DNA of 64,000 bases from Alphaproteobacteria bacterium (GTDB lineage Bacteria; Pseudomonadota; Alphaproteobacteria; Thalassobaculales; Thalassobaculaceae): the NCBI GenBank assembly GCA_024742275.1, contig JANSYS010000013.1:27704-91703 (forward strand). Reading direction: 5' to 3'. The translations under genes were made by a program, and so were the position numbers. This document shows positions 11,529 to 50,849 of the stretch, in pieces. A model generated the notes under the pieces. The model was given only the letters and a program-made list of their open reading frames with translations. It ran no database searches and was not told the origin of the DNA. Position 1 is the first letter of the stretch; every line of letters starts with the position of its first letter.

Positions 11529-12488
11529 TCAGTACCCCCGGCCCAGATCAACCAGCCCGGTCGGTGTTCCACCCGTGCGGATCCGCCGGATGTTCTCGGC
11601 GAAGACGATGGAGGCGGTCGAGGGATTCACCTCGGCGGCGATATGCGGGGTGATGTAGATCCGCTCGTCGTCCCAGAACGGGTGGTCGGACGGCAGCGGC
11701 TCCTGACGGAAGACGTCGAGTGCCGCGGCGGACAGACGACCGCTGTCCAGAGCCGGTATCAAATCCTCCTCGACCAGATGGCCGCCGCGGCCGACGTTCA
11801 CGAGGAATGCCCCTTTCGGCAGCTTGGCGAACAGGTCTGACCCAAGGATTCCCTCGGTCTGCGTCGTCAGCGGCAGCAGACAGACCACCACGTTGGAGCG
11901 GGTCAGCAGGTCGTCCAAAGCCGCGGGACCGGAGACCGATGCCACGCCGCCCACTGCGCGCGGCGAGCGCGTCCAGCCCGTGCTCCTGATTTCCAGCGCC
12001 GTCAGCGCCCGGCTCAGATGCTCCCCAAGGGTGCCGAGGCCGAGAATGGCGACATGCAGATGACGATGATCGAACGCCTCGCTCATCGGCCAATGATGCT
12101 CGGTCTTGTAGCCCTCGAACTTGTCGGCCTGGCGGTGCCAGCGGAGGATCTGCATGACGATGTGGTGGGTCATCGACGTCGCCATGAACGGGTCGATGAG
12201 CCGGGCGATCGGAACGTGGCCGGGGCGATCCGGGTCTTCCAGAATGTGGTCGACGCCGGCGCCGATCGACTGGACCAGCTGCAGGTTCGGGAAGCGCGCC
12301 AACACACCGTGCGGCAGGCGCCAGGAAATCGACACGTCGACACGCGCAAGGTCGTCGCCGGCAATCTCCAGCGCCGGGCGGGCGTCCACTCCCGGCATTT
12401 CCTCCTTGAGTGCCGCAACCCAGGCGGACGGGCCGTCGCCGGTGCTGTGGACGGCGACAATCGGGTTCTCCGGTGTTGCTGCGCCCAT
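11529..12488 (-). CDS. D-2-hydroxyacid dehydrogenase (glyoxylate/hydroxypyruvate reductase A-like)
   Basis: NAD-binding ILGLGTLG, VNVGRGGHLVEEDL and AALDVFRQEPLP...HPFW motifs. Confidence 0.85.
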   Translation of the reverse strand: MGAATPENPIVAVHSTGDGPSAWVAALKEEMPGVDARPALEIAGDDLARVDVSISWRLPHGVLARFPNLQLVQSIGAGVDHILEDPDRPGHVPIARLIDPFMATSMTHHIVMQILRWHRQADKFEGYKTEHHWPMSEAFDHRHLHVAILGLGTLGEHLSRALTALEIRSTGWTRSPRAVGGVASVSGPAALDDLLTRSNVVVCLLPLTTQTEGILGSDLFAKLPKGAFLVNVGRGGHLVEEDLIPALDSGRLSAAALDVFRQEPLPSDHPFWDDERIYITPHIAAEVNPSTASIVFAENIRRIRTGGTPTGLVDLGRGY

Positions 12489-35924: not shown

Positions 35925-38900
35925 CTATTCAGCGCTTAGCCGCACCACCGCATGCCTGCCGCCGACCGCGTCATCTGCGATACGAAGCACATGGGAATGG
36001 TGGGTCAGCACGATCACCTGCGCTTCCTCGGCGAGATCCGCCAGCGCTTCGAGCATCGCACCAGTCCGCGTGTCGTCGGATGAACTGAGGATATCATCCA
36101 GGATCAGCGGCGGCGCCTGGCGGGCACGAGCGAGCTCGAGGTATCCCGCCATACGCAGGGCCAGAAATAGCTGGTGGCGCGTTCCCTCCGACAGAGCTTC
36201 GACCAGTTTGAGCGAGCCGTCTTTCGCTCGCGCTGCGAGCTTGTCGCCTTTGTCGCCCGGTTGGGTCACCAACTCCGGATACCGACTCTGCGTCATCCTC
36301 GCGAAGAACCGACCGGCCGCCTCCAGCATCGGTCCCTTGTTTTCCTGGCGGTAGCGCCCGAGCGCCCAGCTCAACGCCCTCTCGCCCGCTCGGATGCGCG
36401 TGTAGTCGGCGATCTGCTCGACCAAGTCGGAGGCTAGGATCTCGCGCTCCTGCTGCAGGCGCGCGATCTCGTCGGAACCCGACATTTTCTCAAACGCCCC
36501 CCGGGCAACAGCAGCCGCCTGTCCGGCTGAGTCACGGCGCGCCATGACTTGGTCCAGTTCCGCCTTTAGCTGCTCACGCTCGGTGTTCAGCTCGTCCTCG
36601 TCACTGTCATCGAGCATCTTGAGCGCCTCCTCGATCGACGTGGCGGAGAGTTCCTCGACGATCTCCCTTTCGCACTCGCCGACCGTGTTGTTCAGGCCAG
36701 CCCTCTTCACGCCGTCCCGCACCGCCAACATCAGGTCCGAAAATTCCGTTTCTCCGAATTTTGCGGCTAGGTCAGCCAACTCGGATCGCTTCTCCTCGGC
36801 CTTGACCTTCAGTTGCCCCAGGCTCTCGTCAAATCCAGCGATCCGCTCCTCGAGATCGGCCACGCTCCTGTCACGGGCGTCAGCGGCGTCCAGCCGCGAT
36901 TTCAGCTGATCGATAACGAGTAGGAAGTCGGCGCCGTGCAGGTCCTCAGGCGCTTGGAGATCCGTTGCGTCAAGGAATGCCTCGAAACCTTCCTTCACCC
37001 CGGCTTCGTCCACTTCGATCTGCTCGATGCGACGGCGGGCAGTTTTCAGATCGGCGCGGGCGCCGCTCAGGTCAGGCAACCGGTTCAGAATGCCCGACAC
37101 CTGATCGTGGCCGCTATCCTGCGGGATCCAGGTTTCCCTCAAGGCGGCCTCGAAATCCGCTTTCCAGGTCTCGACCGTCTCTGTGGCCTCTGATAGCTCG
37201 CTCTGCCGCTTTTTGACCGTGGCTACGGCGGTCGCCTTTGCCTTGAGGGCTGACTCGCGCTTGCGCTGGTGTTCCTTGAGTTCCTCCACGCATTGTTCGG
37301 CGAGGTTCTGTAGTGCAGAGAGCTTCATTTCCGCGGGCACCGATGCTCCGACGGCCGAGAGCGCCTCGGTGAGCCCAGCGACGTGCTCTGCAGCCGCTTC
37401 CTGCAGCGCTTTCGACTCTCGCTTCCTCGTTTCAATCTTCCTCAATGAGGAGGAGACAGACACCTTCGCTTCGATCAGCCGGCGCAGGCCGGAGATTCCG
37501 CTAACATTGACCTCGTCGGGGATAAGATCCGCGATCTCCTTGTCGACGCCGGCCTGACCGTCCTGCGCGGTCTCAAGCTCCTTCGCCAACCGGTTCATAG
37601 CCACCTTTTCCCGGTCGCGGTCGCGCATTGCGGCGTTCACTTCGCTCAGGCGGTCCGCATGGCGGATCCGGTCCTCGAAGACGCGGTCCGTATCAGCCAC
37701 CGCCCCGGAAAGGCGGGCGCGAAGATCGGCGACCTCATCTGCGGTGAGCGGCCCGTTGAATTCAGCGATCAGAGCGTCGCGGGCGGTCAGCAGCGCCTTA
37801 AGATCGGAGTCGGACGACCTTGCCATGTCGCCGAAGGACTGAATGCGCTCCTCGGCATTCACGTGGATATCCCGCCGTCGGGCGATGTCGCTCTGAATAC
37901 GGCCAACTTCGCTGCGCGCCTCTTCATATCGCCGCTGCAGATCCTCCACATCTCCATGATGGGGAAGCTCAAGGGTATCCAGCCATCCGGCAAATTCGAT
38001 GCCGATCCCAACACCGCCGAGGGTGATCTGCAACTCCTCCCGCAGCATCTCCTGAGACTTCGCGTTCTCTAGTTGGTCGGTCACGAGGTTTCGCTCCCTG
38101 CTCGCCTTGAGCAGGGCGGCTAGAGCCGACGGGTCCGCCGCCTCTTCGATGGAATCGAGTTCGGCCGACGCCGCCTCAAGGCTCTGCCTAGCGCTATCAA
38201 GTTCCCGCTCCGCAGCATGCAGGGCCGAGTTCGTTTCGGTGTGCAGCTTGATCAGGCCGGAAAGATGACTCACCTCCTGCGGCGTCAGGCCGAGATCCGC
38301 ACCGCCCCCTTCGATCGCGACATCCAGTTCGCCGAGGACGCGCTCGATCTTGTCCTGCGCCTCCTTCTCCTCGTCCTTACGGTTCGGGAGGGCCTGTCGG
38401 CGATCCCGGATCATGATCGCGCTGGCTGCGAAATCCTCAATCGCCGCCCGGTGCAGAGTGACGGAATCCGGTTGGGGAATTGCTGCGAGTTGCTCCTGGA
38501 GGGTGGCCCTGTTCTCGCTTGCCGCGGCGGCCCTCGCTTGGAGTGCGCTCATGTCCTGGACAACACCATTGAGCCGGTCCTGGTCCGCCTCGCTCGCAAC
38601 CTCTCCTTCGCCAAGCGTCTCGAGATCGTTGAGCGCGCGCAGGCGGTCGCGGTATGGCCTGAAGGCGGACAATCTGCCTTGGATCCGCGCGATCTGAGCG
38701 CCGAGCCTGACGAACTCTTCCTTGGCCTGCTCGAATGCACCGTTCTGGGCCTCCAGCTCCTTTCGGGTCGATTGATAGGCGTTATTCGACGTCTGGAGAT
38801 CGCGGATCTTGGCGTCGATCTCCTTGATCTGGTTCGACAACACCTTCGCTGTCGCGCTGTGCTTTCCGCTCCAGATGGCTGCAGCCTGTTCGTTCATGGC

Positions 38901-39398
38901 GTCGAGGCGGGCCGGCAGGTCCTGCAGTCCGGTGGTTCCGGCGAACAGGAGCTCGCCCAGACTTCCCTCTCCCCTTGAGATGGCCTCGCCGCCGGCGTCC
39001 AACTGCTCCCGGTTGACCGAGAAGGTCCGCTCGAACTCGGCACGGTCGAACCCATCCACCACCGCTGCGAAGGGGTTGTCCGCAAGGGGCCGGTCGCTCA
39101 CGTCGACCATGTCATCCCTGTGTTTCTTCAGCCGGTAGGCCTCGACCTGGCTCTGGGCGACGGTCGCCCGGGCGCCGACCTTGAGCATGCCCTGGGCGGC
39201 GAAGCCCATCTTCGACTGGTTGTGGAAGCGGAACAGCAGGTCGGAGATCGCCTCGCGGATCGTCGACTTCCCCGCCTCGTTCGGCCCGTAGATGATCTGG
39301 AGATCAGTCTCTCTTCCCGGAATGCCTGATTTCTGGAATTCCAGGCTTCTGCTGTCGAAATGACCGTAGCGGACCAGCTCCAGCGTCTCAAATCTCAT
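35925..39398 (-). CDS. SMC/SbcC-like AAA ATPase, YhaN-type (1157 aa)
   Basis: MRFETLELVRYGHF..IIYGPNEAGKST (Walker A), about 900 aa of coiled coil, LSEGTRHQL signature and PLILDDIL Walker B. The ATG at 39398 overlaps the upstream stop (ATGA). No CxxC hook seen. Confidence 0.88.
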   Translation of the reverse strand: MRFETLELVRYGHFDSRSLEFQKSGIPGRETDLQIIYGPNEAGKSTIREAISDLLFRFHNQSKMGFAAQGMLKVGARATVAQSQVEAYRLKKHRDDMVDVSDRPLADNPFAAVVDGFDRAEFERTFSVNREQLDAGGEAISRGEGSLGELLFAGTTGLQDLPARLDAMNEQAAAIWSGKHSATAKVLSNQIKEIDAKIRDLQTSNNAYQSTRKELEAQNGAFEQAKEEFVRLGAQIARIQGRLSAFRPYRDRLRALNDLETLGEGEVASEADQDRLNGVVQDMSALQARAAAASENRATLQEQLAAIPQPDSVTLHRAAIEDFAASAIMIRDRRQALPNRKDEEKEAQDKIERVLGELDVAIEGGGADLGLTPQEVSHLSGLIKLHTETNSALHAAERELDSARQSLEAASAELDSIEEAADPSALAALLKASRERNLVTDQLENAKSQEMLREELQITLGGVGIGIEFAGWLDTLELPHHGDVEDLQRRYEEARSEVGRIQSDIARRRDIHVNAEERIQSFGDMARSSDSDLKALLTARDALIAEFNGPLTADEVADLRARLSGAVADTDRVFEDRIRHADRLSEVNAAMRDRDREKVAMNRLAKELETAQDGQAGVDKEIADLIPDEVNVSGISGLRRLIEAKVSVSSSLRKIETRKRESKALQEAAAEHVAGLTEALSAVGASVPAEMKLSALQNLAEQCVEELKEHQRKRESALKAKATAVATVKKRQSELSEATETVETWKADFEAALRETWIPQDSGHDQVSGILNRLPDLSGARADLKTARRRIEQIEVDEAGVKEGFEAFLDATDLQAPEDLHGADFLLVIDQLKSRLDAADARDRSVADLEERIAGFDESLGQLKVKAEEKRSELADLAAKFGETEFSDLMLAVRDGVKRAGLNNTVGECEREIVEELSATSIEEALKMLDDSDEDELNTEREQLKAELDQVMARRDSAGQAAAVARGAFEKMSGSDEIARLQQEREILASDLVEQIADYTRIRAGERALSWALGRYRQENKGPMLEAAGRFFARMTQSRYPELVTQPGDKGDKLAARAKDGSLKLVEALSEGTRHQLFLALRMAGYLELARARQAPPLILDDILSSSDDTRTGAMLEALADLAEEAQVIVLTHHSHVLRIADDAVGGRHAVVRLSAE

Positions 39399-40687
39399 GA
39401 CCCATCCCCCTTGCTCGCAGCCGCCGCGGAAGCCACCGCCTCCGCTGCCATGGATTCGAGCCACCCGGCGATGTGGTCGGCGCTTTCCGGATCCAGGTCG
39501 GTTAGTGGGTTCAAGTGCCCCGGGTGTGCGCGAAGGCCCGGAGGCAACTTTGCGAGGATGGCCTCGAAGTCCTTGACCAGCTCCTTCACCAGGTCGCTGT
39601 CTGCGGTCGCACCGGTGCGGATCATGTCCGTCAGGTGCGCAAGTGTGCCTTTATCAATCTCCGCGCGCTGATTATCGCCGGCGGACGCAACGATGCCGAT
39701 CTTCTCGACGGCGACCCGATCGGTGCGGGCCTGAATGTTTGTCTGGATGAGATCGAGGAGATCGTCGCGGCCGCGCCGCACAGCTGGAACAAGTGCCCGC
39801 GGCACAGCGAGTTCAGGCCGCAGGAGCGCTCGACCATGGTCCGATGCGTCGATCAGAGTGCGCGCGATGTCTCCCGCCTCGGCCTGGATGTCGTTGAAAG
39901 ACTCGGCTGAGCTGAGATCGATCGGAACGCGCTCGAGAACGACCGCCGATGTGTCGAACCACTCGATGTTGATCCGGCCGTCAGACACTGTTCCTAGAAC
40001 AGCCCGTCCTTGCCCGGTCTCGCCCATGTCGCGTCCCTGCGGGATGCCCGGGTAGACGATCCAAGGCCGCTCAGGCGTCCCCTCCTGGAATACCTGGCTC
40101 TTGTGGACATGACCGAGGGCCCAGTAGTCGTAGCCTTTGTCCCCCAGTCTGGCTGGCGAGGTCGGCGCATAATCGGCATGCTCGGAGAATCCGCCGAGAG
40201 AGGTGTGCAGCATGCCAATATTCACCCATCCCTGAACCGGATCTGGGTAGCCTGGCGTCATATCCGCGGTGACACTGTTGTCCCTAAACGACGCGCCATG
40301 GATCGCAACCTCGTGTTCCTCGAAGCGATGGGTTGATGCCTTGGGCTTGAAGACGGTCAGTGTTTCAACGTCGGGGAATGGCGGCTTCGCCACCGTCTCG
40401 GCGTCGTGATTGCCGAGGATGATGAAGGTGTGAACACCGGCCTTGCCGAGGCGGCGCAAGCATTCGGCTAAGTAGAGGCCGGTGCGCATGTCCTTGGTCG
40501 AGCCGTCGTATAGGTCACCCGAGATCAGCAGCGCGGCGACCCTCTCCTCGATGGCCTTATCGACGATCCGCTCGAACGCCGCACGCGTCGCTACACCAAT
40601 AGCCTCGGCGAGATCGGCATTCCGCCGGCTCAGCGCCTTAAGCGGGCTGTCTAAGTGGAGGTCGGCGGTGTGGATGAAGCGGAACAT
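39395..40687 (-). CDS. Metallophosphoesterase DNA-repair exonuclease, SbcD/Mre11-like (YhaO-type)
   Basis: MFRFIHTADLHLD, SGDLYDG, ILGNHD and ALGHVH calcineurin-like motifs. Start chosen at the ATG at 40687. Confidence 0.88.
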   Translation of the reverse strand: MFRFIHTADLHLDSPLKALSRRNADLAEAIGVATRAAFERIVDKAIEERVAALLISGDLYDGSTKDMRTGLYLAECLRRLGKAGVHTFIILGNHDAETVAKPPFPDVETLTVFKPKASTHRFEEHEVAIHGASFRDNSVTADMTPGYPDPVQGWVNIGMLHTSLGGFSEHADYAPTSPARLGDKGYDYWALGHVHKSQVFQEGTPERPWIVYPGIPQGRDMGETGQGRAVLGTVSDGRINIEWFDTSAVVLERVPIDLSSAESFNDIQAEAGDIARTLIDASDHGRALLRPELAVPRALVPAVRRGRDDLLDLIQTNIQARTDRVAVEKIGIVASAGDNQRAEIDKGTLAHLTDMIRTGATADSDLVKELVKDFEAILAKLPPGLRAHPGHLNPLTDLDPESADHIAGWLESMAAEAVASAAAASKGDGS

Positions 40688-40984
40688 GACCTCTGAGCCT
40701 GCGGGGGATTTTGAGTGGCGTTTCAAGCATATCCTGAACAATTTTTGATAGTATCACTAAATGTGGCATTGTCATTTGGCGACCGGACGCAACCAGATCG
40801 GTATGGCATGGGGAAACCCCCATTGGATTGGGAAACGAGGCGTGGAGGGGGCCATGGAAGCGATCTCACTATAGGCATCTCCGTATATCAAGTCCGCATC
40901 TGTTCAGACCGAAGATAGACCACCTACTTGACGGGCTTCACCAGGATTGCAACGTAGACGGGCAATTTAGCCGGAGACTGGCGA

Positions 40985-43900
40985 GTGACAAGAGAAGAGA
41001 TCGAAAGCACCCTGTTGCGTGGCGGCGCGGTTCCGGTCGGTGATTCTTCCGGCGGTGAGATCTTATTGGCCGAACCGAACGCGCGGCGGGCCGCCTCCGT
41101 CCTGTTCGAGCAACTCCGCGGCGCATCGGCGGACGAGTTGCGCAATGACGATGACTTCTTCGAGGCACTCGAGACCGCGTTCTTGGCTGAAGATGATAAG
41201 GACACCAAATCGCCCGCGTCGCCTGAGGATCCGAGTGGCTTGGTCCGCGGCCCCACCAGCCAGCCTTCGAAGGTCTGGCGCCTCAAGCTGATCGAGACGC
41301 AGGGATTTGGTGGGCTGAACGCAGTTTCTGGCGACACCTTCAGGTTCGAGGTGGCAGGCCGGGACTTCTGTATCGAAGGCCAGAATGGAAGCGGCAAGAG
41401 CTCGCTCACCAACGCTGTGTTGTTCGCCATGACGGGTCAAATCCATCGCGACCAATTTGGCCTCGTCGATGCCAAACGCTGCGAGCCGGTGGCCGCCGAC
41501 AACGGAAAGACCATCGCCGAATGGCCCCCGATCGCCATTTACCCAGAAGATTGGGGTATCGACCGGCCGGATGTTGATGTTCAAGTTACATTGACCTTCA
41601 CCTGCGGAGACGATGACTGCACCGCCATCCGGCGCTTGCACGGCGCACCCGATAATTTGGCCGACGACCACAATATTGCCCCCGAACTCACCGGTGTACG
41701 GACGTTGATCGACGCCGGGCTGCTGATGCCGATGCGCGTCCAGCACATCCGGATGGCGAACCCGAACGACAACCAGTCTCTTCTAGCCCTGATCCGGCAG
41801 CTCATTGGCCTGGATCCGCTTATCCATGTTGCGGAGCTCGCAACGTCGCTTGGGCATGGCGGCCAGCGATTCCGAAAGTACGCCAAGGACAAGGATATCG
41901 GCGGACGGGTAGAACGGATCAACAAGCTCCTCGAGGGAGCCAATGAGGTTTTATCGGAGCAGGATCCGGACCTCGGAATTGAGATGGAGGTCGACGGGAC
42001 GACACCCGTCGCCGAAGAAGATCTGCGCCTATTGCAGGAGGCCGCGGAACGCGTTGAAAAACTTCAGGCCGATGGCTTCGAGGATCTCCGCAAACTGGCC
42101 TTTGATGAGTTCGATCCCGCCAACACCGAACACCAGGCGCGCGTGAGCCAGGCTGTCGCCGATCTGGCGACCGGCGTTGAAGACCTGCGGAAACCTGCGA
42201 ACGCTCCAGCGATTCTTCGCGACTTGAGAGTCCTATCGAGCAACGTCTCCGATGGGCACATCGACCGACTGCTGACTGCCCTATCGAAGGCGCGGCAGGA
42301 CCTTGAAGATGCCGAAATCTGGGCAGAGAAGCAGGAAACCGATGCTCGGCTTCGCCTGAAAGCCATAGCCGCACCGCACTTTCAGGACTGCGAAGATCCA
42401 TTGTGTCCATTGTGTGAACAGCCTTTGAAGATTCCGCAGCATACAACGTTGTTGACGGATCTGAAGGTTTTGACCAAGGACGCAGAAGCGGCGCAAACGC
42501 GCCTGGAGGATGCATGTCGGCGTATCCTGGATGACATAGTTCGCGCCCGGGACGAGGCTGTTCCAGAAGCATTCAGGAAAGTTCAGCGCTTCCGCGCGAA
42601 AGAGGAGTTCCGCGCCCACGTCGCCGCGATGTTGTTCGGTGACAACGATGCCGCCGATACGCTCCCAGGCCTTAAGGAGCGCGCGGATGGCATCCTACAA
42701 GCCGTTATTGGCCCGCTTGAGGAGTTTGAGTTCGGTGAGAATGTGCCTGAGCCGGAGAACGCGCCCTCGCGGATCCGGTGGATAGTCGATCACTTAGACG
42801 ATGTCTGCAGTGCGGCACAAAACTGGACTGACGAAACGCGTCAGCCTTACCGGGATGCCTGGTCAGGGTTGTTCGCCGAGGCGGAGGAAAATACCGCCCC
42901 TCTGTCATTGACGACCGAAATCGGAGCGTTGCAACGAACCATCGCCTCCATTGTTCCGTATCGCACCGCCGGCAAAAAGCTCGAAGACGTTATCAAGGAG
43001 ATCGCTGAATATAACGCCATCGTCAAACGCCAGATACTCCGCGACGCGATCGCCAAAAGCCTGTCGCCACTTAGAGAACTGATGATGTTGGTCAACCGGA
43101 CGACACAGCAGACCATAAACGATGTCTCCGGCTTGGTCGAACAAGTCCACGCTGAAATCTACAACTCCGAAGCCCTGCTCTACGACAAGACTGATGTGAA
43201 GGAGACGCGGAACAAACAATCCCTGTCGTTCCGTGGCCGCCTCGGCAAGGACCAGGACTGGACCATCGATGCTGCCGTGCTCGCCAACACGTCCTGGATG
43301 CGGGGAATTCTCTGGTCGTTTGTTTTTGCAATCCGGCAACGCGCCATTGAGAGTGCGGGTGGCTGCCCATTTCCGCTGGTGATGCTGGACGATCCGCAGA
43401 TCACATTCGACACCCGTAACCAGAAGGGTTGGGTTAAGTGGCTCGGCCTGTCCGACGGCCTACGCAAGGACCATCCAGTCCACATCGTGATCACAACCCA
43501 TGGCCACGAATTCGCTCAGGAGATGCAGGCCTCAAAGGGCGTCACAATGGGAGCGATAGAAACTGCCCGAAGACCTGGCGCCCCGGCACAACTCGTGCTC
43601 GCCGACTTCGCGGAAATTCGCTTCCAGCAGATGGAGGAGTTGAATTCGGACCCGAAAGCGCGCGAATTAATCTCGGCAATCCGGGTCTTGGCAGAGACCC
43701 TGCTGCGCTTCGCTTTGTCGGCGATCGACCCCAAGCGGGTGGAACGAAAAGACGCAAATATAGGAAGGTTGGTCGAGGAAATTGCACAAAGTCGTCAGAA
43801 TGGAGAGGCGCCGTTTACCGACGGTGTCTTCGAGCGCCTGATCAAACTCAAGGATGGCAACACCATTCGGTTCAGCGAGCTGAGCGAACCTCACCACAAA

Positions 43901-44890
43901 CTGACGGAAACGATCACGGTGCGAGAAGGTCGCCAGGCCTACAAATTCTGGAAAACCAGTCTCTTCCCAGCTCTTCACGCGATTTGGGAATCATATCGAT
44001 TCCTCCAGAAGACTGTATTCATCGACGGCGGAACCGTACGCTTGCCGGCCAACACCAACCATCAGCCGATCCGTTCGAACGATCTGGCGTCCGTAAGACC
44101 GGTGATCGTCGGTAGGGTTTCCGCCTACTCTGATGGACGCCTTGCGTCGGCGCTGCAGCTAGTACCCAGTAGTGACACCGAAGTCATCGACCTCCAGTCG
44201 AGAGCAGTCTATCGCCTCGAGAAGGACACGCTGTCACCGGTTGCCCAAGTCGGCGATTTCCTTCTCACCAGACTGGATCAGAAGACGACACACCGAAACT
44301 TAGTGATCGAGGACCGGGGGGATCATCTGATCGCCCGAAGACTGCTGGAAGACGACGGCAATAAGGGGTTCGCGGTGATGAGTGCCGCGTCCTCCAATCC
44401 GAAGGAGACGCAGAAAGCGGTCGTATCGCGCATGGAGGGTGCACGGCGTTTCAAGATTGCCGGCATCCTTTTCGCTTCCCAGACCCTTGCCGCAGGAGCC
44501 CTCGTCGACGGTCAGACCGAGGCCACCGCGTTGGACGCAACGGACCCAGCCGTGCAAACTTTGGTCGCCGGCACCGAGGTGTTCGAAGTCCAGGGGTCCA
44601 GTGCCGAGCCATTGGCGCTGAATGGTCAGTTTCTTCTCGCGAAGCCACCGTCACGGGACCTGTCGCGATCGATAGCGGATCTCGACGGAAAGCCGGTTAT
44701 CGCGGAGACGACAGACGGCGACGCCTACTTCAAGAGGCTCCGCAAGATCGCGGACAACATGGTCGCGCTCGAAAGCCTGGATAAGACCGGTCTTGAGAGT
44801 CTGATCGTACTGGAACTTGAGGAAGTGGTAGGCCGACCAGGCTTGCGACAACTGCGTGAGGTCGTCGGCGTCGTTTTCGACAGGGCTTGA
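40985..44890 (+). CDS. 1301-aa Rad50/RloC-like ABC-type ATPase with a coiled-coil CxxC hook and two C-terminal LexA/cI-like (peptidase S24-like) domains
   Basis: GTG start with GGAGA 7 nt upstream. Walker A GQNGSGKSS (aa 132-140), CPLC at aa 474-477 inside the coiled coil, Walker B PLVMLDDPQ (aa 797-805) and TTHG. C-terminal patterns are GDFLL..LIARRL..IAGILF and VQGSSAEP..GQFLLA..YFKRL..VVGVVF. Confidence 0.85.
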   Translation: MTREEIESTLLRGGAVPVGDSSGGEILLAEPNARRAASVLFEQLRGASADELRNDDDFFEALETAFLAEDDKDTKSPASPEDPSGLVRGPTSQPSKVWRLKLIETQGFGGLNAVSGDTFRFEVAGRDFCIEGQNGSGKSSLTNAVLFAMTGQIHRDQFGLVDAKRCEPVAADNGKTIAEWPPIAIYPEDWGIDRPDVDVQVTLTFTCGDDDCTAIRRLHGAPDNLADDHNIAPELTGVRTLIDAGLLMPMRVQHIRMANPNDNQSLLALIRQLIGLDPLIHVAELATSLGHGGQRFRKYAKDKDIGGRVERINKLLEGANEVLSEQDPDLGIEMEVDGTTPVAEEDLRLLQEAAERVEKLQADGFEDLRKLAFDEFDPANTEHQARVSQAVADLATGVEDLRKPANAPAILRDLRVLSSNVSDGHIDRLLTALSKARQDLEDAEIWAEKQETDARLRLKAIAAPHFQDCEDPLCPLCEQPLKIPQHTTLLTDLKVLTKDAEAAQTRLEDACRRILDDIVRARDEAVPEAFRKVQRFRAKEEFRAHVAAMLFGDNDAADTLPGLKERADGILQAVIGPLEEFEFGENVPEPENAPSRIRWIVDHLDDVCSAAQNWTDETRQPYRDAWSGLFAEAEENTAPLSLTTEIGALQRTIASIVPYRTAGKKLEDVIKEIAEYNAIVKRQILRDAIAKSLSPLRELMMLVNRTTQQTINDVSGLVEQVHAEIYNSEALLYDKTDVKETRNKQSLSFRGRLGKDQDWTIDAAVLANTSWMRGILWSFVFAIRQRAIESAGGCPFPLVMLDDPQITFDTRNQKGWVKWLGLSDGLRKDHPVHIVITTHGHEFAQEMQASKGVTMGAIETARRPGAPAQLVLADFAEIRFQQMEELNSDPKARELISAIRVLAETLLRFALSAIDPKRVERKDANIGRLVEEIAQSRQNGEAPFTDGVFERLIKLKDGNTIRFSELSEPHHKLTETITVREGRQAYKFWKTSLFPALHAIWESYRFLQKTVFIDGGTVRLPANTNHQPIRSNDLASVRPVIVGRVSAYSDGRLASALQLVPSSDTEVIDLQSRAVYRLEKDTLSPVAQVGDFLLTRLDQKTTHRNLVIEDRGDHLIARRLLEDDGNKGFAVMSAASSNPKETQKAVVSRMEGARRFKIAGILFASQTLAAGALVDGQTEATALDATDPAVQTLVAGTEVFEVQGSSAEPLALNGQFLLAKPPSRDLSRSIADLDGKPVIAETTDGDAYFKRLRKIADNMVALESLDKTGLESLIVLELEEVVGRPGLRQLREVVGVVFDRA

Positions 44891-45079
44891 ATATTGATCA
44901 GTTTGTTCCTCTGAGATCATTCGTACGTTCACCTTGGGCCGAACGTTCCTAAAGCATCGGACGTCCGCTTTGGGTCGACGGCAGATCGCCAGCATTCGAT
45001 GGATCGCCGATTGCCAACGTCGTTCCATCGGTTCTCAATGGTGCCGTGGGGGAGGTCGTTCCTATTGGAGGAAACGACT

Positions 45080-45718
45080 ATGCTTCCTGATACCAGCCTT
45101 TCAGAGACATCAGCTGTTCGCCCGGCACCCTGGAACAAGGGCCGTCTGGTCGGTCAGAAGCGTCCGCTGAAGCCCAAGGATGTCTGGGGCATCCGTGTGC
45201 GCCTTGAGATCAGCGGCAGCAAGCGGGATCTGGCACTGTTCAATCTGGCGATCGACAGCAAGCTGCGCGGATGCGACCTGGTCAGCTTGAAAGTGGAGGA
45301 CGTCCAGGTCAGCGGCCGTATTCGCGAACGGACCACGGTCCTCCAGCAGAAGACCGGACGCCCGGTTCAGTTCGAACTGACTGAGCCGACACGCAAGTCG
45401 GTCGAGGCATGGATCGACCATGCCGGCAGGCGTCCTGGCGACTACCTCTTCCCGAGCCGATGGAGGCTCAGTCCCCATCTGTCGCCACGACAGTATGCCC
45501 GGATCGTTCATACCTGGGTGGAGAGTGCCGGGCTCGACAGTTCGGCCTACGGGACCCACACGATGCGACGCACGAAAGCGGCCCAGATCTACCGCAAGAC
45601 CGGAAATCTGCGGGCCGTCCAGTTGCTGCTCGGCCATACAAAGCTTGAGAGCACCGTGCGGTATCTCGGCATCGAAGTGGACGATGCCCTGACGATCTCC
45701 GAGCAGATCGAGCTGTAG
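45080..45718 (+). CDS. Short tyrosine-type recombinase/integrase (212 aa)
   Basis: ATG at 45080 with a GGAGGA SD. Motifs RGCDLVSLKV, HTMRRTKA (HxxR) and LLGHTKLESTVRYLG (H..Y). Confidence 0.85.
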   Translation: MLPDTSLSETSAVRPAPWNKGRLVGQKRPLKPKDVWGIRVRLEISGSKRDLALFNLAIDSKLRGCDLVSLKVEDVQVSGRIRERTTVLQQKTGRPVQFELTEPTRKSVEAWIDHAGRRPGDYLFPSRWRLSPHLSPRQYARIVHTWVESAGLDSSAYGTHTMRRTKAAQIYRKTGNLRAVQLLLGHTKLESTVRYLGIEVDDALTISEQIEL

Positions 45719-46080: not shown

Positions 46081-46362
46081 TCAGTGATAGTCGACTAACT
46101 CGACATTCTCGGCACCGCCATCGGACCATCTGAAGCAAATCCGGTATTGGTCGTTGACCCGGACGCTGTACTGACCTTCGCGATCTCCCGAGAGCTTCTC
46201 CAACCGGTTCCCCGGCGGAACGCGAAGGTCTTCGACATCCCGGGCCGCATCGATCATCAGCAGCTTCCGCCGCGCCCGGCGCTGGATGTCGGGCCCGAAG
46301 CCGCGGACATAGGTCCCTTCGAAAACCGTGCGAGTGGCCGCGTCCCGGAAGCTTCTAATCAT
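46081..46362 (-). CDS. higB: HigB-family toxin (RelE/ParE superfamily, 'plasmid maintenance system killer')
   Basis: MIRSFRDAATRTVFEG...PPGNRLEKLSGDREGQYSVRVNDQYRICFRW; located upstream of higA. Confidence 0.88.
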   Translation of the reverse strand: MIRSFRDAATRTVFEGTYVRGFGPDIQRRARRKLLMIDAARDVEDLRVPPGNRLEKLSGDREGQYSVRVNDQYRICFRWSDGGAENVELVDYH

Positions 46363-46557
46363 CGATAGTTATGTAGTGCGTAACCAGCGCCGTGGCAAGC
46401 AGCGAGCGCTGTGGAGAGCAATTGAACTGAGCGACCGCTTTGAAGCGGCGCGTCAGCAAGGGCGAACGTCCGCAATGGGTCGGACCCCACGATCTGCGCG
46501 GCATAGACATAGTGAATGCTTAGGAATCCCTAACTTTCCGTGGCAGCTTCACCCTGG

Positions 46558-46578
46558 TATTGCGACTCATTTTCATTT
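46558..46578 (+). promoter_or_regulatory. Candidate Fur-box-like operator upstream of the ECF sigma gene
   Basis: TGCGACTCATTTTCA (46561..46575) matches 11 of 15 positions of the TGATAATCATTATCA core by eye. Confidence 0.3.
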
Positions 46579-46628
46579 AGAGACGAGCCGAGTACCCTCT
46601 TCACCGGTTTCCGTCGCCGCGCGCGCAC

Positions 46629-46648
46629 CTATCCCATCCGAGTTCTAT
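46629..46648. repeat. Right copy of an imperfect direct repeat (candidate attR)
   Basis: CTATCCCATCCGAGTTCTAT, matching 31691..31716. It abuts and overlaps the ATG of the sigma gene. Confidence 0.35.
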
Positions 46649-47192
46649 GACGGCACATCGCGATCCTGCGGAGCTTTTCGTCGAGCATCGAGCGGATCTG
46701 GTGAAATACGCCACGCGGATCCTCGGTTCCCGCAGCAGTGCCGAGGACGTGGTGCAGGAGGCCTATCTGCGCTTCGCCCGCCACGCCGATGGCGGGGAGG
46801 CGCTCGGCGCGCGGGGCGACCGGATCCTGGAGCCGGTGCGCTACCTGTACCGGATCGTACGAAACCTCGCCTATGACTGGGGCCGGCGGCCGAGCATGCC
46901 GCTGGTCGGCGACCTGGATGACGGGCTGCTCGCCCGGGCCGCCAGCACCGTGACCAGCCCGGAGGAGAACCTGCGCTGGCGCCAGGATCTCGGCCGAGTC
47001 GAGCGGGCGCTGGACAGCCTGCCGGACCGCACCCGCCAAGCCTTCGAGATGCACCGGCTGGGCGGCTTGCCGCTAAAGGAGATCGCCGCCCGGCTCGACA
47101 TCTCGGTGACCCGAACCCACCAGCTCGTCAAGACCGCCCTCACCGTCTGCGCCGAGCAGCTCGAAGACGAGGCCGGTGAGGATGGCCGGTGA
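46647..47192 (+). CDS. ECF (FecI-like, iron-starvation) RNA polymerase sigma-70 family factor
   Basis: Region 2 (EDVVQEAYLRFAR...YLYRIVRNLAYDW) and region 4 (LPDRTRQAFEMHRLGGLPLKEIAARLDISVTRTHQLV). Confidence 0.88.
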   Translation: MTAHRDPAELFVEHRADLVKYATRILGSRSSAEDVVQEAYLRFARHADGGEALGARGDRILEPVRYLYRIVRNLAYDWGRRPSMPLVGDLDDGLLARAASTVTSPEENLRWRQDLGRVERALDSLPDRTRQAFEMHRLGGLPLKEIAARLDISVTRTHQLVKTALTVCAEQLEDEAGEDGR

Positions 47193-47283
47193 AAATAGAG
47201 GGTGAAAAACCGGGCGCCCCGCTCGTCATGAAGATTAGGCGCGCCGCATCCGGCCCGCTGCCGCTCCCGACAGGGGCGGTTCC

Positions 47284-48282
47284 GTGACACGCGAAGAGTC
47301 CTCGATGGAGAACGGACGGCTGCAGCGGGATCCCGTCTGGGACCAGGCGCTGGACTGGCTTCTGGCGGTGCAGGAGCGACCGCAGGACGTCCGGCTGCGC
47401 ACCGAGCTGGAGACTTGGCTGGCTGCCGATCCCCGTCACCGGGCCGCCTATGACAAGGCGCAGCGGGTCTGGACCCTCACCGGCGATGTCGCCCCAATCC
47501 CCGAAACGCAGGAAGCTCCCGGGAGCGGCACCGTCGTTCCCTTCAAACCCCGGCGTCCGGTGCGCCGTCGCGCGCTTGCCGCCGGAACGCTGGCCGCCTG
47601 CCTGGCCTTCCTGGTCCTGCTCGGTCCGGTGCAGCAGCTACTCGACGGGGCCGACCTGTCCTCGCCCACCGGCGAGCTGGTCGCCAGCCCCCAGCCCGAC
47701 GGCAGCGTCATCATCCTGAACGCCGACAGCGCCATCCGCACCGACTTCACCGGCACCCGCCGCCAGGTCGTGCTGGTCGAGGGCGAGGCGTTCTTCCAGG
47801 TCACCCGCGACAAGACCCGGCCCTTTGCCGTCCAGGCTGCCGACACGGTGGTCACGGTCACCGGCACCGCCTTCGGCACCCGGCTCGGTGCCGACGACGT
47901 TATGGTCGAGGTCGAGGAAGGATCGGTCGCCGTCGCCACTCCCGGCCGCCCCGAGCCGGTTCGGCTGACACCCGGCGCTCGGCTCTCCGTCGACCGGACC
48001 ACGGGTGCGGTGCGGGTGACCGCCGTCCCCACCAGCCATATCGCCGCGTGGCGCCGCCATCTGCTGATCGCCGAAGGCGAACGTCTGGGCGACGTGCTCG
48101 ATCGCATCCGACCGCATTACAGCGGCGCGATCCTCACCACCGATACCGCCTTGCTGGACCGGCCGGTCAGTGGCGTCTTCGACCTGCGCCGGCCGCGGGA
48201 GGCCCTGCGGGCGGCAGCGACCGCTCGTGCCGCCTCGGTCTACGAGATCACACCCCTGCTGGCCGTCGTGGTGGCCGACTGA
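47284..48282 (+). CDS. FecR-family anti-sigma / transmembrane sensor
   Basis: N-terminal anti-sigma region (DQALDWLLAVQERP), a single TM helix and a periplasmic FecR domain. GTG at 47284, or ATG at 47305. Confidence 0.85.
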   Translation: MTREESSMENGRLQRDPVWDQALDWLLAVQERPQDVRLRTELETWLAADPRHRAAYDKAQRVWTLTGDVAPIPETQEAPGSGTVVPFKPRRPVRRRALAAGTLAACLAFLVLLGPVQQLLDGADLSSPTGELVASPQPDGSVIILNADSAIRTDFTGTRRQVVLVEGEAFFQVTRDKTRPFAVQAADTVVTVTGTAFGTRLGADDVMVEVEEGSVAVATPGRPEPVRLTPGARLSVDRTTGAVRVTAVPTSHIAAWRRHLLIAEGERLGDVLDRIRPHYSGAILTTDTALLDRPVSGVFDLRRPREALRAAATARAASVYEITPLLAVVVAD

Positions 48283-48392
48283 GACCACTTGGCAAAAAAA
48301 TATTTCCCACCCCCTGAAAAACCAGGATCGGGCCTCGTCGTCATTATTGCGAATGGATCGCATTTGCAGTTTGCCCGCCTGCGGGCTGCCGA

Positions 48393-50849
48393 TTGACGAT
48401 GAGGGGACTGAAGACGATGACATTGCGGGATCGGGGTCCGGCACGGGCCGGCAACAGGCGGGTCTGCCGCGCAGCACTGAACGGGGCGCTCGCGGCGAGC
48501 GTTGCCTCTCTCATCGCCGGCTCGGCTCTGGCGGAGGGTACGGTGACCACTAGCCTCCCTGCAGCGAAGCAGCTCGCCCAGGCGGAGACGAGGAGCTTCG
48601 ATATCCCGGCAAAGCCGCTGGAGCAGGCGCTGATCGATTTCGGTCAGCAGGCGGGTTTACAAGTGTCCTTCGACCCGGCGCTGACCGAGGGCCTGAACTC
48701 CAACGCCGTCAGCGGCACCCTCACACCGGACCTCGCCCTGCGCCAGCTCCTGTCGGGGCTCCCGATCACCGCCAGCTTCAGCGGCGCCAACACGGTGACC
48801 CTGAGCCGGTTGAGCTCGGATTCCAGCGCGATTCTGCTCGGCGCGGTCGTGGTGCAAGGCGAAGGCCAGACGGCGACCGGCCCTATCGACGGTTATGTCG
48901 CCACCCGCAGCGGCAGCGTGTCCAAGACCGACACGCCGATCATCGAGACCCCGCGCGCGGTCTCGGTGGTAACCGCCGACGCGATCAGCGACCGCAAGAC
49001 CATCAGCGTCGAGGATAGCCTGCGCTATGTCCCCGGCGTCCAGGTCAACGGCTATGGCAACGACCCGCGCTTCGACCAGATCAAGGTTCGTGGCTTCACG
49101 GTTACCAGCACAGCCGATTTCCGCGACGGGCTCCGCCAGACCAACACCGGGTGGCTGTCGTATTTTCACACCGAGCCCTACGCGTTGGAACGTATCGACG
49201 TCGTGAAAGGTCCGAACTCGGTACTGTTTGGTCAGTCAAGCCCGGGCGGTATGGTCAACCGCGTCACCAAGCGGCCGACCGAGGACACCCGCGGCGAGGT
49301 CGAGGTCCAGCTCGGCACCGACGAGCATCGCCAGGGCCAGTTCGACCTCTCCGGTCCGGTGACCGAAGACGAAAAACTGCTCTACCGCTTCGTCGGCGTG
49401 CTCCGCGAGAGCGAGTCCGAGCTTATCGGAGTCAATAACGACGTCCAGTTCATCGCACCCTCGGCCACCTGGAAACCCACCGAGAAGCTAAGTCTCACGT
49501 TTCTCGGCGAGGCCCAGCATTTCGAGACCGCCGGCTCGGCCCGTCCTTACCAGTACGCCTCGGGAGAGCTCAGCCACTTTTGGGCCGGTGACGAGGATTT
49601 CGACGGTCTGAAGCAGACCCAGTACATCGCCGGCTATGAAGGCCGCTACGAGTTCAACGAGGTCTTCGCCCTGCGCCAGAACTTCCGCTACGGCACGGTT
49701 GAGACGGAGAACCAGTACCTCTCCAGCTCGATGACCGGCGACGGCCGCACGCTCTCGCGCACGACCTACGGCGTCTATGAGGACATGGACAACCTCTCGG
49801 TCGACACCGCCGGCGAGGCCCGCTTCACAACCGGCGAAGTCGAGCACACGGTGATGATCGGCATCGACTACTCGAAAATCGACGCCAATGTTCAGTACGC
49901 CTACGGCACCGGGCCGAGCATCGACATGCTGAACCCGGACTATCATCAGGACGTCTCCCGTCCGGGCACGATCCTGGTCGACCAGAGCATCGACGCCCAC
50001 CAGCTCGGCTTTTACGCCAGCGAACAGTTCGAATGGGGCCGCTGGCGGTTCAGCGGCGGCCTGCGGCATGACCGGGCCGAGAGGGAGACCACCGACAACC
50101 TGACCGGCGGCATCAGCGACGGCGAGAACAGCGCCACCACCGGCAGCGCCGGCCTGCTGTACCTGTTCGACAGCGGCTTCGCGCCCTATGCCAGCTACGC
50201 CACCTCCTTCACTCCGGATTTCGGCACCGACATCAACGGCGAGTCCTTCGAGCCGACCGAGGGCGAGCAGTACGAGATCGGCCTGAAGTACCAGCCCCCG
50301 GGCCGCGATAGCATCTACACGATGAGCTTTTACAACCTGGTTGAAACCAACCGGAAGACGCAGGACCCCGACAATATCGCCAATAGCATCCAGACCGGTG
50401 AGCAGCGATCGCGTGGCCTGGAGCTCGAGGCGGCGATGAAGCTGACGGAGAATTTCGATCTGGTGGCCGGCTACTCCTACATCGACGCCGAGATCACCAA
50501 GAGCAACAACGGCGACGAGGGCAACGTGCCGGTCGGCGTGGCCGGGCACATGGCCTCCGCCTGGGGTAACTACACCTTCACCTCCGGAAAGCTCGCCGGG
50601 TTGGAGGTCGGGGGCGGCGCGCGCTACGTGGGCGAGACCTATGACGACAGCGCCAACACCAACAAGAACGATGCCGTCGCCATGTTCGACGCCCGGGTCA
50701 GCTACGATCTGGACATGCTCGCTCCGGGCGCGTCGATCGGCGTTTCCGCCACCAACCTGACCGACGAGGAGCACATCACCTGCGAGAGCGGCTACTGCTA
50801 CCGCGGCCGCGGACGCGTGGTGATCGGCAGCCTGACCTACCGGTGGTGA
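48393..50849 (+). CDS. TonB-dependent siderophore receptor with an N-terminal STN signalling domain (FecA/FpvA-type transducer)
   Basis: STN domain (FDIPAKPLEQALIDFGQQAGLQVSF), plug (ETPRAVSVVT), beta-barrel and terminal aromatic ...LTYRW. Start is uncertain (48393 TTG, 48399 or 48417 ATG). Confidence 0.9.
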   Translation: MTMRGLKTMTLRDRGPARAGNRRVCRAALNGALAASVASLIAGSALAEGTVTTSLPAAKQLAQAETRSFDIPAKPLEQALIDFGQQAGLQVSFDPALTEGLNSNAVSGTLTPDLALRQLLSGLPITASFSGANTVTLSRLSSDSSAILLGAVVVQGEGQTATGPIDGYVATRSGSVSKTDTPIIETPRAVSVVTADAISDRKTISVEDSLRYVPGVQVNGYGNDPRFDQIKVRGFTVTSTADFRDGLRQTNTGWLSYFHTEPYALERIDVVKGPNSVLFGQSSPGGMVNRVTKRPTEDTRGEVEVQLGTDEHRQGQFDLSGPVTEDEKLLYRFVGVLRESESELIGVNNDVQFIAPSATWKPTEKLSLTFLGEAQHFETAGSARPYQYASGELSHFWAGDEDFDGLKQTQYIAGYEGRYEFNEVFALRQNFRYGTVETENQYLSSSMTGDGRTLSRTTYGVYEDMDNLSVDTAGEARFTTGEVEHTVMIGIDYSKIDANVQYAYGTGPSIDMLNPDYHQDVSRPGTILVDQSIDAHQLGFYASEQFEWGRWRFSGGLRHDRAERETTDNLTGGISDGENSATTGSAGLLYLFDSGFAPYASYATSFTPDFGTDINGESFEPTEGEQYEIGLKYQPPGRDSIYTMSFYNLVETNRKTQDPDNIANSIQTGEQRSRGLELEAAMKLTENFDLVAGYSYIDAEITKSNNGDEGNVPVGVAGHMASAWGNYTFTSGKLAGLEVGGGARYVGETYDDSANTNKNDAVAMFDARVSYDLDMLAPGASIGVSATNLTDEEHITCESGYCYRGRGRVVIGSLTYRW

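Follow-up and report, generated by a model that had tools for sequence, protein, structure and literature searches.

An RloC-related Rad50-type ATPase family carrying a candidate RNase domain and tandem LexA-type barrels, possibly a DNA-triggered toxin with a proteolytic latch

In this work, we describe a gene of 1301 codons found in a 64,000-nucleotide (nt) stretch of DNA from an alphaproteobacterium of the Thalassobaculaceae (contig JANSYS010000013.1, positions 27,704 to 91,703), hereafter called the window. Its product joins a split Rad50-type ABC head, bearing hook-tipped arms, to an all-helical candidate RNase domain of the RloC/PrrC type and to two C-terminal barrels of the LexA type. 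From sequence comparison we infer both RNase activity and self-cleavage, and the reading we favour, which we hold to be an even call, is that of a RloC-type RNase toxin, triggered by DNA and restrained by a LexA-style proteolytic latch, that would act as a stand-alone, mobile conflict or stress-response protein. The plan of an ABC ATPase joined to a nuclease is known from RloC; the S24 regulatory module would be the new part.

The open reading frame (ORF) is uninterrupted and starts with GTG, with a GGAG 9 nt upstream. A word-indexed search returned 82 homologues, most of them 1290-1300 amino acids (aa) long, alignable over their full length at identities from 82% down to 28%. The C-terminal 461 residues, used as query of an exhaustive search by profile with a cut-off of E<=1e-3, matched at least 457 representative clusters, and every full-length match (about 1250-1390 aa) has the S24 module at the same C-terminal place. 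Given these full-length homologues and the architecture shared by the clusters, the ORF is a real gene, aligned end to end across its family with the same arrangement of parts. Invariance is reported below for 32 diverse members, reaching 18-20% identity. Public records label the relatives 'AAA family ATPase' or 'hypothetical', and Pfam, NCBIfam and PADLOC scans of the protein gave only partial or sub-threshold matches, at P-loop level or over part of the chain (SMC_N, AAA_23, Rad50, SbcC, LmuB); PADLOC v2 contains no model for the family.

The closest known system is RloC, a wobble-nucleotide-excising anticodon nuclease that belongs, with PrrC, to the Pfam AAA_13 family. Its catalytic triad, Arg-X3-Glu-X36-52-His, does not tolerate mutation, mutants of each residue being inactive (PMC2610378). 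A seed taken from the published supplement led, through an AAA_13 fragment, to matches named 'wobble nucleotide-excising tRNase'; two genomic loci gave C-terminal RloC pieces, a metagenome scan gave 80 RloC loci, and 36 full-length proteins from the metagenome loci make up the RloC profile. Entries of about 660 aa were rejected as complete RloC proteins, their nuclease domain being missing through frameshifted gene calls. In the two genomic loci (L067, 3001-5452, and L068, 3001-5446), both from metagenomes assembled from long reads, a frame change just past the H-loop splits the RloC call into two ORFs of 657-659 and 148 aa; several database entries stop at the same point. The split may be either a homopolymer assembly error or genuine.

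Comparison by hhalign of residues 1-1035 of the family with the 36 RloCs produced one collinear alignment of 481 columns (Prob 92.1%, E=6.1e-7), spanning the N-arm, the hook, the C-arm, the signature Ser, Walker B, the D-loop, the H-loop and the helix containing R-x3-E. The family CPxC is paired with CAFC and LDDPQ with IDDPI, and R900 and E904 fall exactly in register with RloC NNARKFLE. The same register was recovered when the C-terminal half was aligned with RloC (E=5.4e-4, 211 columns). A control alignment with a neighbouring SbcC/YhaN-like family gave only a 39-column match at Walker A (Prob 27%). The ABC motifs of the RloC type were found, namely Walker A, the invariant D802 and D809 and the aligned signature Ser. 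Both proteins are single-gene units in which arms bearing a CxxC hook interrupt a Rad50-like ABC head; both have a 'DDP' Walker B and, straight after the head, a helical domain with R-x3-E followed by (N-x3-)H. By these alignments, the first 1000 residues or so are a distant relative of RloC, and this kinship offers a candidate function for the middle domain. The two also differ: RloC measures 680-895 aa, while the family adds a N-terminal region of about 95 aa, longer arms and about 265 C-terminal residues, made up of the LexA-like strand and the two S24 barrels.

The split Rad50-type head, already proposed in the preliminary description, is borne out by a profile search of PDB, which matches Rad50 on both halves: Chaetomium Rad50 5da9 at positions 790-847, over Walker B, D-loop and H-loop (E=1.3e-6), and 3qf7 at positions 110-148. 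The residue numbers given there were likewise right (Walker A G132-S140, Walker B/D-loop P797-D809, H839). A weaker match, to 1l8d, the zinc-hook fragment of Rad50, falls around positions 463-517, within a helical insertion presumed to form a coiled coil because it aligns with the arms of both RloC and LmuB. The family resembles Rad50/SbcC in its head motifs and in the CxxC hook placed mid-insertion. It departs from them in having N768-x-S770-x2-R773 as a degenerate signature instead of LSGG, in lacking an obligate Mre11/SbcD partner and in its two added C-terminal modules. Walker B and D-loop read L801-D802-D803-P804...D809, and N768, R773, D802 and D809 are among the invariant head residues; the catalytic Glu of Walker B, however, is replaced by Asp in 30 of 32 members, and Asn takes the place of the H-loop His in 14. 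Because these two residues are replaced in many members, a slow, switch-like ATPase is suggested.

No recognisable motif had initially been seen between residues 840 and 1040; the region does carry one, R900-x3-E904...N967-x3-H971. An AlphaFold2 model of residues 866-1034 is all-helical (predicted local distance difference test score, pLDDT, 83.8; predicted template modelling score 0.77), and the only residues of this domain that are invariant, down to 18% identity, are R900, E904 and H971. H970 is found in 30 members and N967 in 25, and N967-x3-H971 resembles the N-E-F-S-H of RloC. In Foldseek searches, the few low root-mean-square deviation (rmsd) matches of the model are all HEPN proteins (2q00, 8yuf, 8xeh), described as HEPN toxins, with template modelling (TM) scores of 0.37-0.46; a survey of HEPN proteins lists PrrC and RloC solely as ABC-HEPN fusions. 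That the middle domain is a nuclease is plausible.

Two tandem domains following the LexA/UmuD/cI pattern had been proposed for the C-terminus. The fold is supported for both, whereas the Ser/Lys pattern does not hold in the first. An AlphaFold2 model of residues 841-1301 (mean pLDDT 76.7) shows the helical domain and two beta-rich domains. Nearly all top Foldseek matches in PDB are LexA and lambda cI C-terminal domains, with probability 1.0, target TM 0.56-0.65, rmsd 2.7-3.6 Å and 103-120 aligned columns; 8trg and 8gms are among them. The Pfam Peptidase_S24 model matches barrel 2 in 12 of 20 relatives (best E=2.6e-7) and barrel 1 in three distant relatives; the window protein itself scores 18.1-23.0 bits with PF00717, against a gathering cut-off of 23.3. 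Sequence searches of PDB with the whole protein and with the C-terminal profile gave no LexA match: LexA was found only by the fold search and by hhalign with a more diverse alignment. With close relatives only, hhalign probabilities are meaningless, and those alignments were used for register alone. References were LexA and UmuD of E. coli K-12, their catalytic and cleavage residues being checked by index. With the diverse alignment, barrel 1 aligns with barrel 2 at Prob 96.5% (E=7e-10), so that the two are, by sequence, clearly duplicates; against LexA/UmuD, the strand with barrel 1 gives Prob 90% (E=1.5e-6) and barrel 2 gives Prob 58% (E=9.7e-5).

The two copies seem to have divided the features of a LexA-type module between them. 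Ahead of barrel 1 lies a strand with the consensus P-[VIL]-[LIV]-G-x-[VLI]-A-A, which matches LexA LPLVGRVAAG and in which Ala-Ala is invariant; its A1047 is aligned on the scissile A84 of LexA, and the 35 residues between A1047 and T1082 equal the spacing from A84 to S119. In barrel 1 itself the nucleophile position is occupied by T, N, S, A, R or H and the Lys position by Arg (29 of 32) or Gly; judged by these residues, it is catalytically dead. Barrel 2 has the Ser/Lys dyad in register with that of LexA. Barrel 1 thus looks like a substrate without an enzyme and barrel 2 like an enzyme without a substrate. UmuD dimers cleave in trans, and the tandem barrels recall such a dimer fused into one chain. 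The family shares with LexA, UmuD and lambda cI the fold, the dyad and the P-x-x-G-x-V-A-A strand at its 35-residue distance from the nucleophile position; in contrast to them, it has no DNA-binding domain, carries two tandem copies among which enzyme and substrate features are split, and bears the module on an ATPase, not on a repressor or a polymerase subunit. Coordinates of all features are reported in Table 1.

Table 1. Coordinates of the 1301-aa gene, its parts and the adjacent gene pair in the window
Feature	Position	Strand	Basis or remarks
Whole gene, 1301 aa, stop included	40985..44890	+	full-length homologues
N-terminal conserved segment, aa 1-65	40985..41179	+	invariant L10, L28, L44; near-invariant F59
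Variable, mildly acidic linker, aa 66-97	41180..41275	+	poor alignment, variable length; composition
ABC/Rad50-type head, N-half, aa 98-290	41276..41854	+	Walker A; profile match 3qf7
Walker A, G132-S140	41378..41404	+	N134, G135, G137, K138 invariant, 32/32
Long helical insertion, presumed antiparallel coiled-coil arms, aa 291-755	41855..43249	+	alignment to LmuB and RloC arms
Zinc-hook-like CPxC, C474-P-L-C477, arm apex	42404..42415	+	C474, P475, C477 invariant; aligned to RloC CAFC
ABC head, C-half, aa 756-865	43250..43579	+	signature, Walker B/D-loop, H-loop H839
All-helical middle domain, aa 875-1005, candidate RloC/PrrC-type (HEPN-like) RNase	43607..43999	+	AlphaFold2; invariant R900/E904/H971
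R900	43682..43684	+	invariant, 32/32
E904	43694..43696	+	invariant, 32/32
H970-H971	43892..43897	+	H971 32/32, H970 30/32
LexA-like cleavage-site strand, aa 1039-1052, PVIVGRVSAYSDGR	44099..44140	+	A1047 invariant; next residue never Gly
Barrel 1, aa 1056-1163, S24/LexA-fold putative pseudo-protease	44150..44473	+	T1082 at nucleophile position, R1118 at Lys position
Inter-barrel linker, aa 1164-1195	44474..44569	+	E1179 near-invariant
Barrel 2, aa 1196-1299, predicted S24 protease domain	44570..44881	+	invariant S1206, K1250
S1206	44600..44602	+	on LexA S119; invariant, 32/32
K1250	44732..44734	+	on LexA K156; invariant, 32/32
Divergent pair, SbcCD/YhaON-like	35925..40741	-	optional, recurrent neighbour, no fixed part
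Metallophos, 448 aa	39395..40741	-	Pfam
AAA_27/SMC_N ATPase, 1179 aa	35925..39464	-	Pfam

A mechanism may be drawn from these elements. The ATPase with its hook would, as in RloC, hold back the RNase-like domain as long as no DNA ends or damage, for instance from phage attack, are met; sensing of DNA would then drive an ATP-dependent rearrangement of the head, freeing the RNase-like domain. The tandem barrels would mimic a LexA/UmuD dimer within one chain, with barrel 2 as enzyme and, as its substrate or pseudosubstrate, the strand that precedes barrel 1. Cutting at or near A1047, triggered by head rearrangement, by filaments of RecA on single-stranded DNA, or by both, would irreversibly detach the barrel module of about 250 aa and unleash the RNase, whose shut-down of translation would end in abortive infection or growth arrest. 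Self-cleavage of S24 proteins is classically stimulated by RecA filaments and, since 8trg and 8gms are also among the top fold matches, RecA is an attractive co-trigger. In line with this, RloC is reported to be activated by an inducer of DNA breaks (PMC3874168). In GkaRloC, the nuclease is activated by ATP hydrolysis and DNA, and hook mutations short-circuit activation; as to the trigger in vivo, breaks alone gave no detectable activation (PMC3458546). Taken in full, the proposal that LexA-type autoproteolysis, instead of inactivating a repressor or maturing a polymerase subunit, arms the toxin, a dead copy presenting the strand to a live one so that gating by the DNA sensor, by RecA filaments or by both releases a RloC-type tRNase, is tentative, and we regard it as rather doubtful.

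A number of observations weigh against the favoured reading. As for cleavage, where LexA-type proteins would have Ala-Gly or Cys-Gly, about 35 residues ahead of Ser, such a site was not found and Ala-Ala stands instead: the next residue is F, A, Y, K, H, T, R or L, never Gly, and hhalign places a 3-residue insertion ahead of a partly conserved Gly, G1051. Substitution of G85 blocks cleavage of LexA, and one of the fold matches, PDB 1jhf, is indeed titled 'LEXA G85D MUTANT'. The insertion displaces the Gly equivalent, so that the strand in front of barrel 1 may be uncleavable. As for the RNase, the 92% probability of the RloC alignment rests chiefly on head and hook. The middle domain alone, although in the same register, aligns with the RloC C-domain at Prob 0.3%; the spacing between E904 and H971 is 66, outside the 36-52 published for RloC, and the His region is unaligned, so that the nuclease, established in RloC, is here a predicted one. 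Foldseek of the middle-domain model against PDB gave nothing significant (best E 1.2), a BFVD search gave no match, and neither Pfam nor PADLOC matched the domain in 31 members; the Arg position typical of HEPN (964) is R or K in just 14 of 32 members. Similarly, the H-loop His is retained in 12 members only, the best PADLOC match is LmuB, not RloC, and no SOS box (GTTC-N7-GTTC) is present in the promoter region, the matches across the window being those expected by chance. The Pfam AAA_13 model did not match the window protein at E<=1; one distant member does match it (E=0.0097), but this match is confined to the arms.

Several of these points would be accommodated if the protease were itself the effector, the protein being a Lamassu-like or novel SMC sensor whose barrel 2 cleaves another protein of host or phage, with the middle domain as an adaptor and the LexA-like strand as an autoinhibitory pseudosubstrate displaced on activation. 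Absence of Gly after Ala-Ala fits a non-cleavable pseudosubstrate, the dyad is invariant, the middle domain matches no nuclease family, and LmuB is matched at E=2.9e-10 over aa 360-848, that is, over the arms and the C-terminal head of a SMC/Rad50-like defence sensor. The coverage of LmuB is partial, however, and neither nuclease-like nor S24 domains are fused to LmuB; a Lamassu system also requires the effector LmuA and LmuC as genes of their own, while no kleisin-like or LmuA-like partner is conserved in the 41 loci of the family for which neighbourhoods were compared. Lmu matches among neighbouring genes were limited to weak cross-matches of ATPases. Moreover, invariant R, E and H residues are hard to explain in a mere adaptor, all the more so with R-x3-E in register with the catalytic residues of RloC, and S24 enzymes are, to our knowledge, almost solely self-cleaving domains. 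We consider a protease effector unlikely.

It is also conceivable that the S24 module cleaves nothing relevant, and serves for docking on RecA filaments or for dimerisation, bringing the ATPase to DNA that is damaged or foreign. The C-terminal domains of LexA form dimers, and the two barrels in tandem could together make a pseudo-dimer; the residue after the putative scissile Ala is not Gly. In PMC9926225, the C-terminal domains of LexA, UmuD and cI are described as binding the RecA filament groove, in line with 8trg and 8gms as top fold matches. What makes a purely docking module quite improbable is the conservation of S1206 and K1250, strictly invariant in 32 sequences down to 18% identity, which argues for catalysis, the more so as barrel 1 shows how fast catalytic residues decay when unneeded.

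Finally, a DNA-repair accessory, namely a Rad50/SbcC paralogue with SbcD-like and SbcC/YhaN-like neighbours, tuned by UmuD-like, RecA-stimulated cleavage, is highly improbable: the Metallophos and AAA_27 pair is found beside the gene not only in the window but also in three further loci, two of which have proteins just 29% identical, and a sbcD remnant lies beside the Bradyrhizobium copy, but 37 of 41 loci lack the pair, the gene is sporadic and borne on islands or plasmids, unlike core repair genes, and RloC, a toxin, has the same optional neighbourhood.

Under the full proposal, doubtful as it is, of a toxin armed by LexA-type autoproteolysis, the signal of DNA damage conveyed by RecA would be hard-wired to an abortive shut-off of translation. 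Among bacterial switches that respond to DNA damage, LexA-type self-cleaving domains are the best known. A coupling of DNA damage to translation shut-off through RloC is a long-standing proposal, and a RloC-like core joined to such a domain would give this link a directly testable form. According to the preliminary description, a Rad50-like head fused to LexA-type domains could not be assigned to a described family. This agrees with what we found, in that searches of Pfam, NCBIfam, PADLOC and existing annotations gave no such fusion; the literature search, which did not extend to the ABC-ATPase classification of Krishnan and Aravind (2020), retrieved no fusion of a RloC-like or SMC-like ATPase with S24. 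The protein is nevertheless no orphan, in view of the RloC kinship of its N-terminal 1000 residues. We know of no earlier S24 module whose tandem copies divide the roles of enzyme and substrate between them, nor of one attached to a SMC/Rad50-class ATPase, and the family would be the first in both respects.

The gene is solitary, patchily distributed, and found on islands and plasmids. No neighbour is conserved across the 41 loci, and two relatives stand alone amid housekeeping genes. The copy from Erythrobacter belongs to a defence island with OLD/UvrD, NotI-like, MmeI, T5orf172, YafQ/RelB and two integrase genes, and a relative 82% identical is followed by Gp49/HTH and ArdC genes. Eight plasmids, five of them conjugative, carry the gene; the plasmid and phage search found it in no phage. 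In the window its GC content is 0.56-0.60, against 0.62-0.70 in the flanks, which is consistent with horizontal acquisition. Immediately downstream, at 44999-45718 on the forward strand, a 239-aa ORF of the Phage_integrase family is probably a truncated integrase marking the island edge; there is no tRNA gene anywhere in the window. Promoter and terminator scans gave nothing above chance. A pattern-limited search located 60 loci among 185,579 species, and in reference genomes the family is mostly found in Alphaproteobacteria, with some Gammaproteobacteria, Nitrospira and Acidobacteria; its clusters are mainly from rhizobia, sphingomonads and other Alphaproteobacteria.

The Metallophos and AAA_27 pair, divergent in the window, adjoins the gene in four of the 41 loci (the window, L001, L020 and L047); an obligate Mre11/SbcD operon partner, as for Rad50/SbcC, was thus not found. 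In L020 and L047, where the family protein is 29% identical to that of the window, the partners have diverged to a similar degree, being 27-28% (ATPase) and 36-43% (phosphoesterase) identical. A Metallophos/SbcC-like pair directly follows RloC in L067 and L068, and 14 of 82 RloC loci have a Metallophos homologue at most 2.5 kb away from RloC; the table of the RloC paper lists 'metallo-phosphoesterase' and 'DNA repair exonuclease' among flanking genes. ArdC and integrases are further neighbours occasionally shared with RloC. The pair, as a common neighbour of both, lends circumstantial support to their functional kinship; it may reflect either functional partnership or shared island cargo.

At the other end of the protein, residues 1-100, previously taken as D/E-rich and devoid of a recognisable fold, proved only mildly acidic (20% D+E, compared with 15.8% in the whole protein). 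The first 65 residues are conserved; Pfam has no match for them.

Matches of some Bradyrhizobium plasmids to aa 1-1004 were considered as intermediates lacking S24 and rejected, barrel 2 being frameshifted into the next ORF. This is the case in the distant member on plasmid pBb323S2d of Bradyrhizobium barranii (L149, 2450-9682), where barrel 2 falls in the next annotated ORF; genes for a S8 family peptidase and an ATP-binding protein lie upstream, a truncated sbcD and two IS110 copies downstream. In five loci from sphingomonads, Erythrobacter and Gluconobacter (L002, at 11878-12399, L019, L033, L037 and L038) an ORF of about 173 aa, without Pfam match and absent from the window, directly follows the gene. 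An iron-uptake signalling cluster, unrelated to the 1301-aa gene, occupies positions 46328-50849 (forward strand) of the window; it comprises a FecR-like anti-sigma gene (47284-48282), a TonB-dependent receptor with a STN domain (48393-50849) and, upstream of the former, a small ORF probably encoding a sigma factor.

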